Positions 39,567 through 39,695 of a stretch of 64,000 nucleotides of DNA are shown here, in pieces. Under the pieces are notes generated by a model, which saw nothing but the letters and a program-made list of their open reading frames with translations, searched no databases and was not told the origin of the DNA. Numbering within the stretch: the stretch's first letter is position 1; the number at the start of each line of letters is the position of its first letter. The DNA is from Prochlorococcus sp. AG-412-J13 (GTDB taxonomy: Bacteria; Cyanobacteriota; Cyanobacteriia; PCC-6307; Cyanobiaceae): assembly GCA_003214815.1 (NCBI GenBank), contig QCLE01000005.1, positions 10,724 to 74,723 of the forward strand. The letters run 5' to 3'. A program made the translations under genes and the position numbers.

Positions 39567-39646
39567 TACTAGGGGTGCTAGGAAATTTAACTTAGCTGAG
39601 ATCATACCCTTTGAACCTGAATCATTAATCTTGATCCAGGGAAGTG
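39567..39646 (+). promoter_or_regulatory. TPP-class riboswitch aptamer (variant)
   Basis: P2 AGGGGT/ACCCTT, P3 GCTAGG/CTTAGC, CTGAGA, TGAACCTGA, TAAT loop and AGGGAAG, 50 nt upstream of thiC. Confidence 0.9.
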
Positions 39647-39695
39647 GAGATTTGATCAAACTTTAGTAATAATACTTTTTAAAAATTTGTAAATT

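Follow-up and report, generated by a model that had tools for sequence, protein, structure and literature searches.

How much of its pyrophosphate-sensing pocket can a thiamin pyrophosphate (TPP) riboswitch lose while the rest of the RNA stays under selection? This question is raised by the leader of thiC in a 64,000-nucleotide stretch of Prochlorococcus sp. AG-412-J13 (contig QCLE01000005.1; hereafter the window, whose positions are used throughout). No riboswitch class is more widespread than that of TPP, and its ligand contacts G60, C77 and G78 (Escherichia coli thiM numbering) are treated as near-universal. An initial annotation of the window described the leader as a TPP aptamer whose pyrimidine-sensing arm is intact and whose pyrophosphate-contact nucleotides are replaced, the C77-G78 of joining segment J5/4 having become U-C. 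We find that this description extends to a whole clade of high-light (HL) Prochlorococcus: among 128 distinct leaders the J3/2 pyrimidine sensor is retained in all, position 77 is U in 120, and position 78 is G in 92, A in 17, U in 12, C in 6 and deleted in one. As judged by these counts, the clade-wide feature is U77 next to a position 78 free of constraint, where G is commonest, followed by A, U and C, and where even a deletion occurs; the U-C of the window, which the annotation had treated as the variant, is just one allele.

Covariance-model alignment to RF00059 places the TPP-type aptamer at 39561–39659, immediately 5' of thiC (39696–41066; PF01964, E 1.6e-189), with a score of 49.5 bits (E 5.4e-9 in the local search and 7.7e-9 genome-wide) that spans the whole model, positions 1–105, and is well past chance expectation; it is the single TPP-type match in the 1.83-Mb genome. 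The score lies under the family's gathering score of 54.3 bits, and a scan of the whole window at the Rfam gathering threshold reports RNase P RNA and two tRNAs only, not the TPP element. A permissive Rfam scan of 39450–39760, covering all 4227 families at E values up to 10, returned no thiamin-related family other than TPP. Infernal places P1, P2, P3, CUGAGA, J2/4, P4, P5 and L5, the optional P3a stem being missing, and aligns the J5/4 consensus CG to U39635-C39636; the same columns receive the UG, UA and UU of relatives, and for the deletion allele an AUCA/UGAU helix is drawn without interruption. The letters at 39561–39700 are as first read: a canonical left half with CUGAGA, UUUGAACCUGA at 39610–39620, and a right arm that runs CCUG (39616–39619), AA (39620–39621), UCA (39622–39624), UUAAUCU (39625–39631), UGA (39632–39634), U (39635), C (39636) and CAGG (39637–39640), followed by GA. 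In 2GDI numbering the thiM equivalents are G60 = G39619, A61 = A39620, U62 = A39621, C77 = U39635, G78 = C39636 and U79 = C39637. The thiM numbering used in the annotation agrees with the published roles of G60, C77 and G78 and of G40, G42 and A43 (PMC3764141; bioRxiv 10.1101/2025.01.21.634073): the first three contact the pyrophosphate and magnesium, and U39–A43 form the pyrimidine-ring sensor (PMC3764141).

To place this leader among its relatives, we scanned 151 species-level genomes of its genus with RF00059, and 132 gave a match, almost always one each. The scores are bimodal (62–74 versus 45–57 bits), leaving 84 of the 132 thiC aptamers under the Rfam gathering score; scores of up to 56.3 bits are found in the nearest relatives with G78, and of 62–74 in the sister clades. 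Adding 80 named loci found via ThiC yielded 204 leaders, 178 of them distinct. Synechococcus/Cyanobium and most low-light (LL) Prochlorococcus leaders have the canonical arm ending CCGG-CG-CAGGGA, sister HL clades read CUGA-CG-AAGG, and the low-scoring group reads CCUGAAUCA-L5-UGAU-N-CAGGGA. In a FastTree phylogeny of the flanks only, with the arm masked, the low-scoring group is one clade of 128 distinct leaders (support 0.96), and thus this HLII-like clade is not defined by the feature being counted. By sequence comparison, its element clearly descends from the canonical one still present in sister Prochlorococcus clades and Synechococcus. The window itself is assigned to HLII-type high-light Prochlorococcus because its ThiC is 100% identical to that of the single-amplified genome (SAG) AG-402-M15 and 98–99% identical to those of strains SS51, MIT 9314 and MIT 9302. 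Although ThiC is identical in AG-402-M15 (leader L132), its P4/P5 arm differs at three positions (C/U in L5, G at 77 and G at 78), and the gene is thus evolving far more slowly than the arm. Two LL SAGs, AG-409-K04 (L204) and AG-402-P16 (L191), have right arms of unusual sequence (…CUGG-AA-AGG and …CCAA-G-UAAGG), again without C77-G78.

Four genomes that gave no hit were re-checked and no aptamer loss was found. In two of them contigs break off within the leader or the start region of thiC (L349, G073:C16:1-105, and L350, the end of G010:C22; single-cell or draft assemblies), which explains at least some of the ‘missing’ riboswitches; the remaining two, one of them 93% complete, had no match to the thiC leader region.

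Within the HLII-like clade the entropy of position 78, 1.31 bits, is the maximum among aptamer columns and reaches the upper end of the values of 14 four-fold degenerate sites early in thiC (mean 0.76, maximum 1.43 bits), as compared with a mean of 0.006 bits across 39595–39615 (the 3' strand of P3, J3/2, the 3' strand of P2 and J2/4). Fitch parsimony counts about 25 changes at position 78; one arm haplotype occurs with either G or C and a second one with G, U, C or no base at all, and C therefore arose at least three times. Divergence is greater among the 23 leaders of the sister HL clades (four-fold entropy 1.18), but all 23 have C77, G78 and A61. Position 62 behaves in the opposite manner: it is A in 15, U in 7 and C in 1 of the sister leaders versus A in 124 of 128 in the HLII-like clade. 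The shift from a free position 62 with fixed C77 to a fixed A62 with U77 is the pattern predicted by a new A62-U77 pair, and fits the annotation's proposal of a smaller loop, with the new U paired to the A across from it. Together, the column counts document a loss of constraint at position 78 and a gain at position 62 in the HLII-like clade. The top pair of P5 is A·C in 26 leaders, which makes A62-U77 one of only three P5 pairs, and where position 78 is U (12 of 128 genomes) the arm can pair throughout as a 9-bp helix in which the loop is gone.

Ocean metagenomes gave a similar picture. The survey was an exact-pattern scan requiring fixed flanking bases, and its counts refer to 100 contigs among the matches listed: position 78 is G in 49, A in 24, U in 15 and C in 12, with several states per L5 haplotype, and the riboswitch core is intact in 97. 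The suspicion that the window's arm might be a singleton or a sequencing error is dispelled by the presence of C78 on at least three arm haplotypes, in 12 of the 100 listed metagenome contigs and in metatranscriptome contigs. The survey called for by the initial annotation was meant to measure the spread of the U-C variant: U-C is indeed recurrent in genomes and metagenomes, but as one allele of a polymorphic site and not as a class.

An independent comparison is provided by the LLI-type genus (37 leaders), where C77U occurs in about 21 genomes and has a separate origin (leaders L312–L348, e.g. L185:454-557). There it is accompanied by a compensated P4 change, from CCUG/UAGG to CUUG/UAAG; position 62 is U, and U62·U77 cannot close the loop. 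G78 is still G in about 90% of these U77 leaders, which score about 68 bits against RF00059. Since the LLI leaders keep G78 despite U77, U77 alone does not account for the release of G78, which goes with the HLII architecture.

Outside this loop the element has the anatomy of a TPP riboswitch. Infernal alignment and pair counts in 151 HL leaders support the three-way junction of P1, the P2-P3 arm and the P4-P5 arm, and the pair counts are 150/151 for 39568:39645 and 151/151 for both 39569:39644 and 39570:39643. The outermost P1 pair, 39567:39646, is U·G in HLII and A-U in 11 sister leaders, and P3 covaries at 39580:39593 (A-U, U-A or G-U) and 39582:39591 (G-C or A-U). The sensor U39-G40-A41-G42-A43 is found as CUGAGA at 39596–39601 in 128 of 128 leaders. 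Instead of C77-G78 the window reads U39635-C39636, with G60 retained as G39619 (G in 120 of 128 leaders, 8 exceptions). L5, UUAAUCU, keeps the adenosines of the predicted tertiary contact with P3 (A39627 in 111 and A39628 in 124 of 128 leaders). The 3' strand of P1 ends 49 nt upstream of the thiC ATG, so that the element sits in the leader of a thiamin gene. G39619 pairs with C39637 as G-C in 113 of 128 leaders, and as A-U, G·U or a mismatch otherwise. The arm is laid out as P4 (CCUG/CAGG), a 1x1 mismatch A39620·C39636, and P5 (A39621-U39635 plus UC(A)/(U)GA) capped by L5. The parts of the leader are as follows.

39545–39560 (+): conserved upstream block AAAGAGCUAUUAAUAA with a -10-like TATTAAT at 39552–39558; probable promoter of the thiC leader (mean column entropy 0.08 bits versus 0.34 farther upstream, 128 leaders).
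39567–39570 (+): 5' strand of P1, UACU, partner of 39643–39646 (Rfam alignment).
39572–39575 (+): 5' strand of P2, GGGG, partner of 39607–39610; four pairs, 151/151; columns invariant in 128/128.
39577–39596 (+): P3 hairpin, GCUAGG-loop-CUUAGC, without P3a (Rfam alignment).
39597–39606 (+): J3/2 pyrimidine sensor (hydroxymethylpyrimidine, HMP, ring), UGAGAUCAUA; invariant in 128/128 save one change at 39606, matching the CUGAGA family consensus.
39611–39615 (+): J2/4 junction UUGAA, invariant or 127/128, in agreement with the family consensus.
39616–39640 (+): remodelled P4/P5 ‘pyrophosphate-sensor’ arm (pair counts), one nucleotide shorter than the sister-clade arm.
39619–39621 (+): equivalents of thiM G60, A61 and U62, here G, A and A (clade G120/A6/U2, A 125/128 and A 124/128).
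39635 (+): equivalent of C77, here U (clade U120/G5/C2/A1; Infernal column assignment).
39636 (+): equivalent of G78, here C, the unconstrained site (clade counts as above).
39637 (+): position 79, here C, Watson-Crick partner of G39619 (clade C120/A5/U3).
39643–39646 (+): 3' strand of P1, AGUG (Rfam alignment and pair counts).
39653–39671 (+): expression-platform block UGAUCAAACUUUAGUAAUA, a putative switching sequence (mean entropy 0.07 bits).
39673–39695 (+): AU-rich variable spacer (mean entropy 0.49), without a Shine-Dalgarno sequence or terminator.
39696–41066 (+): thiC (HMP phosphate, HMP-P, synthase; PF01964), the regulated gene.

The neighbourhood of the leader is as follows. An open reading frame of 71 aa without a Pfam match (39282–39497, +) ends about 70 nt before the riboswitch, and its ATG overlaps by 4 nt the stop of an upstream M20-family peptidase gene (38101–39285). 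The next gene after thiC, convergent with it, encodes transketolase, a TPP-dependent enzyme (41081–43087, −). The three RNAs reported by the gathering-threshold scan are a bacterial class A RNase P RNA (48534–48913, −; 255 bits) and tRNA genes at 12487–12558 (+) and 48952–49025 (+).

Is the leader in use? The near-invariant core and platform beside variable synonymous sites point to a working RNA under purifying selection. Contigs of four ocean metatranscriptomes show a summed depth that rises 20–100 fold between about 39543–39569 and 39597–39623 and then stays level through the platform into thiC, the leader being covered at a depth comparable to that of thiC; these data are assembler contigs and not reads, and speak to presence and continuity only. 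The position of the rise also fits the probable promoter at 39545–39560. At 39636 the contigs carry predominantly G, with the C of the reference present too. By the same contigs thiC is highly expressed in situ, with no attenuation visible. Within thiC itself, the third positions of codons 2 and 3 (AGA and AGU; 39699–39707) are invariant in the 128 leaders and the third position of codon 4 has an entropy of 1.43 bits, which suggests that the early thiC codons are under RNA-level constraint.

It is against this background that decay of the aptamer, offered as one possibility by the initial annotation, has to be judged. A relic or non-sensing leader that binds no ligand and is kept for promoter function, mRNA stability or translation would be in keeping with the sub-threshold scores of the 84 genus aptamers, a P1 of just 3 bp plus U·G, a contact nucleotide that drifts neutrally and the high, visibly unattenuated expression of thiC, but we consider it very improbable given that J3/2, P2 and the junction are invariant in 128 of 128 leaders and 97 of the 100 listed contigs have an undamaged core despite variable synonymous sites nearby, that P3 and P4 show compensatory changes, and that among the four re-checked no-hit genomes no near-complete one is shown to have lost the element.

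How, then, would ligand binding be read out? The scan of the leader found no terminator-like site, and no Shine-Dalgarno sequence is visible in the 40 nt before the thiC ATG, just as the annotation had stated. The unconstrained minimum free energy (MFE) structure of the leader pairs GAUCA of J3/2 (39600–39604) with UGAUC (39653–39657), and the 5' strands of P1 and P2 (39567–39574, UACUAGGG) with 39661–39668 (CUUUAGUA). The identical anti-aptamer architecture is the unconstrained MFE structure in representatives of two sister HL clades, and essentially all of the 151 HL leaders could form both helices. A sequence complementary to J3/2, some 10 nt beyond P1, recurs more widely: as GUGAUCUU in LLI, GUGAUC in most other LL and marine Synechococcus leaders and UGAUC in HL; freshwater Cyanobium-type leaders mostly have a shorter complement in a shifted register (CUCGGC). 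The initial annotation had proposed a different switch, a helix between 39631–39636 and 39654–39659. This pairing is possible at only 3–5 positions across HL genomes (39636:39654 in 18 of 151 leaders and 39631:39659 in 96 of 151), with only GAU/AUC conserved, and by conservation J3/2 39600–39604 is the better partner of 39653–39657.

Two further candidates were examined and rejected: an outer long-range helix, 39562–39565:39670–39673, where 39564 varies (U in 76 and A in 51 leaders) against an invariant 39671 and most leaders have C at 39673, and a promoter within the platform (TGGAGA-17-AATAAT), the last T of which is a minority allele.

In the mechanism that we propose, the block 39653–39671 would pair back onto J3/2 and the 5' strands of P1 and P2 in the ligand-free leader, and would be released upon ligand binding to act on the thiC start region, which lacks a Shine-Dalgarno sequence. 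In the leaders L203 and L195 (one marine Synechococcus, one LL Prochlorococcus) the thiC start codon lies within AGAUCAUG, a mimic of the J3/2 segment AGAUCAC; the platform GUGAUCU of these leaders could pair with either J3/2 or the start codon, which suggests a switch that sequesters the start codon. Helices by which the released platform might sequester the start region of the window (39666–39670:39693–39697, 39659–39664:39700–39705 and 39651–39657:39710–39716) are pairable in the HLII-like clade.

As for the aptamer, we lean, with moderate confidence, towards a functional, clade-wide thiC-leader derivative of the TPP riboswitch in which the pyrophosphate loop has closed up and pyrophosphate recognition is probably weakened or relaxed. 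The HLII-like derivative keeps the three-way junction, the J3/2 HMP-ring sensor, P2, P3 and the L5 adenosines, and has rebuilt its loop by losing one P5 nucleotide and changing C77 to a U that can pair with the fixed A62. The 2x2 pyrophosphate loop would thereby become a single A61·N78 mismatch (1x1), leaving the former G78 putatively neutral to selection and the C of the window as one of four alleles. Expression of thiC would most likely still be lowered once a thiamin-family ligand occupies the pyrimidine pocket, and in the cell this ligand is probably still mostly TPP, since TPP is the main HMP-containing compound in cells. The contact with the pyrophosphate is probably weakened, with lower affinity and looser discrimination among HMP-containing compounds, as expected by analogy with E. 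coli thiM mutants (bioRxiv 10.1101/2025.01.21.634073): there, changes at A61, C63, C77 and G78 reduce the TPP response but leave the fold and binding by the pyrimidine helix in place. The anatomy, the clade-wide distribution and the two shifts in constraint are shown by the alignments and counts; ligand behaviour and the output step are inferred.

Several observations weigh against this interpretation, or at least temper it. G is still the plurality base at position 78 (49–72%), which could mean weak selection for G beyond ancestry, and G60, A61, U77 and C79 are 94–98% conserved, such that some pocket may persist that could bind TPP well. The weakened recognition is deduced from conservation and from thiM mutants that belong to another sequence context. 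Leader counts come from related genomes and not from independent events: the Fisher test of the HLII-like versus sister contrast (p 0.002) is overstated for this reason, and the number of independent changes is rough, the arm-masked tree being built on about 280 nt. As for the output step, the nucleotides of the anti-aptamer helices are invariant, and covariation support is hence absent; several pairs between the released platform and the start region are broken, uncompensated, in sister HL clades; and the modelled ensemble accessibility of the AUG hardly differs between the free leader (0.27) and one with the aptamer forced (0.24).

The alternative that survives best is an ordinary TPP riboswitch, with a competent pocket (formed, for example, by G60, A61, backbone-bound Mg2+ and G39633) in which position 78 is dispensable and TPP affinity and selectivity are essentially normal. 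We regard this as possible, though decidedly less probable than the derivative described above. It accords with the full-length architecture and the thiC context, with the 94–98% conservation of G60, A61, U77 and C79, with the score of 68 bits that the LLI U77 leaders still attain and with G being the commonest base at position 78. The ligand is also available: the genome encodes ThiD, ThiE, ThiL and ThiG, from which it follows that the cell makes HMP-P, HMP pyrophosphate (HMP-PP), thiamin monophosphate (TMP) and TPP. Such a riboswitch is, however, difficult to reconcile with the strict retention of C77 and G78 in the sister clades, with the U78 alleles (also 15 of the 100 listed contigs) that allow a loop-free helix, and with the deletion of the base in one genome. 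Moreover, G78 has been described as the sole one of these residues that directly touches the pyrophosphate (PMC3764141), and a thiM mutant combining G78U, A61U and C63U is less responsive to TPP (bioRxiv 10.1101/2025.01.21.634073).

The other alternative is a changed specificity, in which the pyrophosphate is not needed and the pyrimidine moiety is sensed, be it as HMP, HMP-P, aminomethylpyrimidine (AmMP), thiamine or TMP. The invariance of the pyrimidine sensor next to a pyrophosphate contact that is free to vary is what such a sensor would lead one to expect, and HMP-P is the product of ThiC. The conserved switching element competes with the pyrimidine-binding strand J3/2 and not with the pyrophosphate arm, and ligands of the engineered thiM mutants act via the pyrimidine helix despite an altered pyrophosphate helix (bioRxiv 10.1101/2025.01.21.634073). 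We nevertheless think this quite unlikely, as the P4/P5 arm and the L5 adenosines are maintained, which suggests a ligand that still has to span both arms, no newly conserved nucleotides able to form a new pocket were found in the leaders, and TPP normally prevails among the HMP-containing compounds of cells. The boldest version, namely that the Prochlorococcus lineage dominant in the ocean has converted the sole TPP riboswitch of its genome into a pyrimidine-moiety sensor (HMP, HMP-P, AmMP or thiamine) that leaves the pyrophosphate unread, appears unlikely too.

How does the proposed relaxed TPP-riboswitch derivative compare with systems already described? It shares with the TPP riboswitches of RF00059 (E. 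coli thiM and thiC, cyanobacterial thiC leaders) the fold, CUGAGA, J2/4, G60, the L5 adenosines and the thiC context, and differs in a J5/4 that consists of U plus any base, a P5 that is one nucleotide shorter, a fixed A62, a predicted 1x1 instead of a 2x2 loop, a P1 of 3–4 pairs and a score under the gathering threshold. In engineered E. coli thiM with a randomised pyrophosphate helix the same positions are altered (including G78U) and the fold and pyrimidine-helix binding are kept (bioRxiv 10.1101/2025.01.21.634073), but those mutants were selected in the laboratory for responding to synthetic ligands and not to TPP, whereas the HLII changes are natural, clade-wide and polymorphic. The HMP-PP riboswitch (thiS motif) likewise belongs to the thiamin pathway and reads a pyrimidine precursor, and precursor sensing thus occurs in nature; it differs in being a tiny terminator-embedded hairpin of unrelated architecture upstream of thiS (PMC6478431). 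The leader in the window has no terminator-like site, matched only TPP among thiamin-related families in the permissive scan, and precedes thiC. Variants of the guanine class (PMC9295807), and variants of the FMN riboswitch as cited in PMC6478431, follow the same logic of a conserved scaffold with substitutions at ligand-contact positions; in those classes the substituted nucleotides are conserved in their new state, whereas in HLII the former contact nucleotide is unconstrained. No published description of the HLII remodelling or of an unconstrained position 78 was found in the literature searched, which did not include the Weinberg 2017 survey of variant riboswitches.

A whole clade of the most abundant photosynthetic organism keeps a riboswitch under strong selection while one of its contacts drifts. 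For RNA biology, this offers a way of testing the need for a pyrophosphate pocket and provides a candidate for altered or relaxed specificity, with the sister clades as a built-in natural control and four natural alleles available for side-by-side biochemistry. For annotation, pipelines that apply the gathering threshold leave those 84 of 132 genus thiC aptamers unreported. If pyrimidine sensing were true, it would constitute a natural specificity change inside the most widespread riboswitch class, and thiC, the entry to pyrimidine synthesis, would be under the control of the pool of precursors, among them pyrimidines that the cell salvages from seawater. For ocean biogeochemistry, the control of thiC bears on which organisms are makers and which are consumers of vitamin-B1 pyrimidines in oligotrophic seas.

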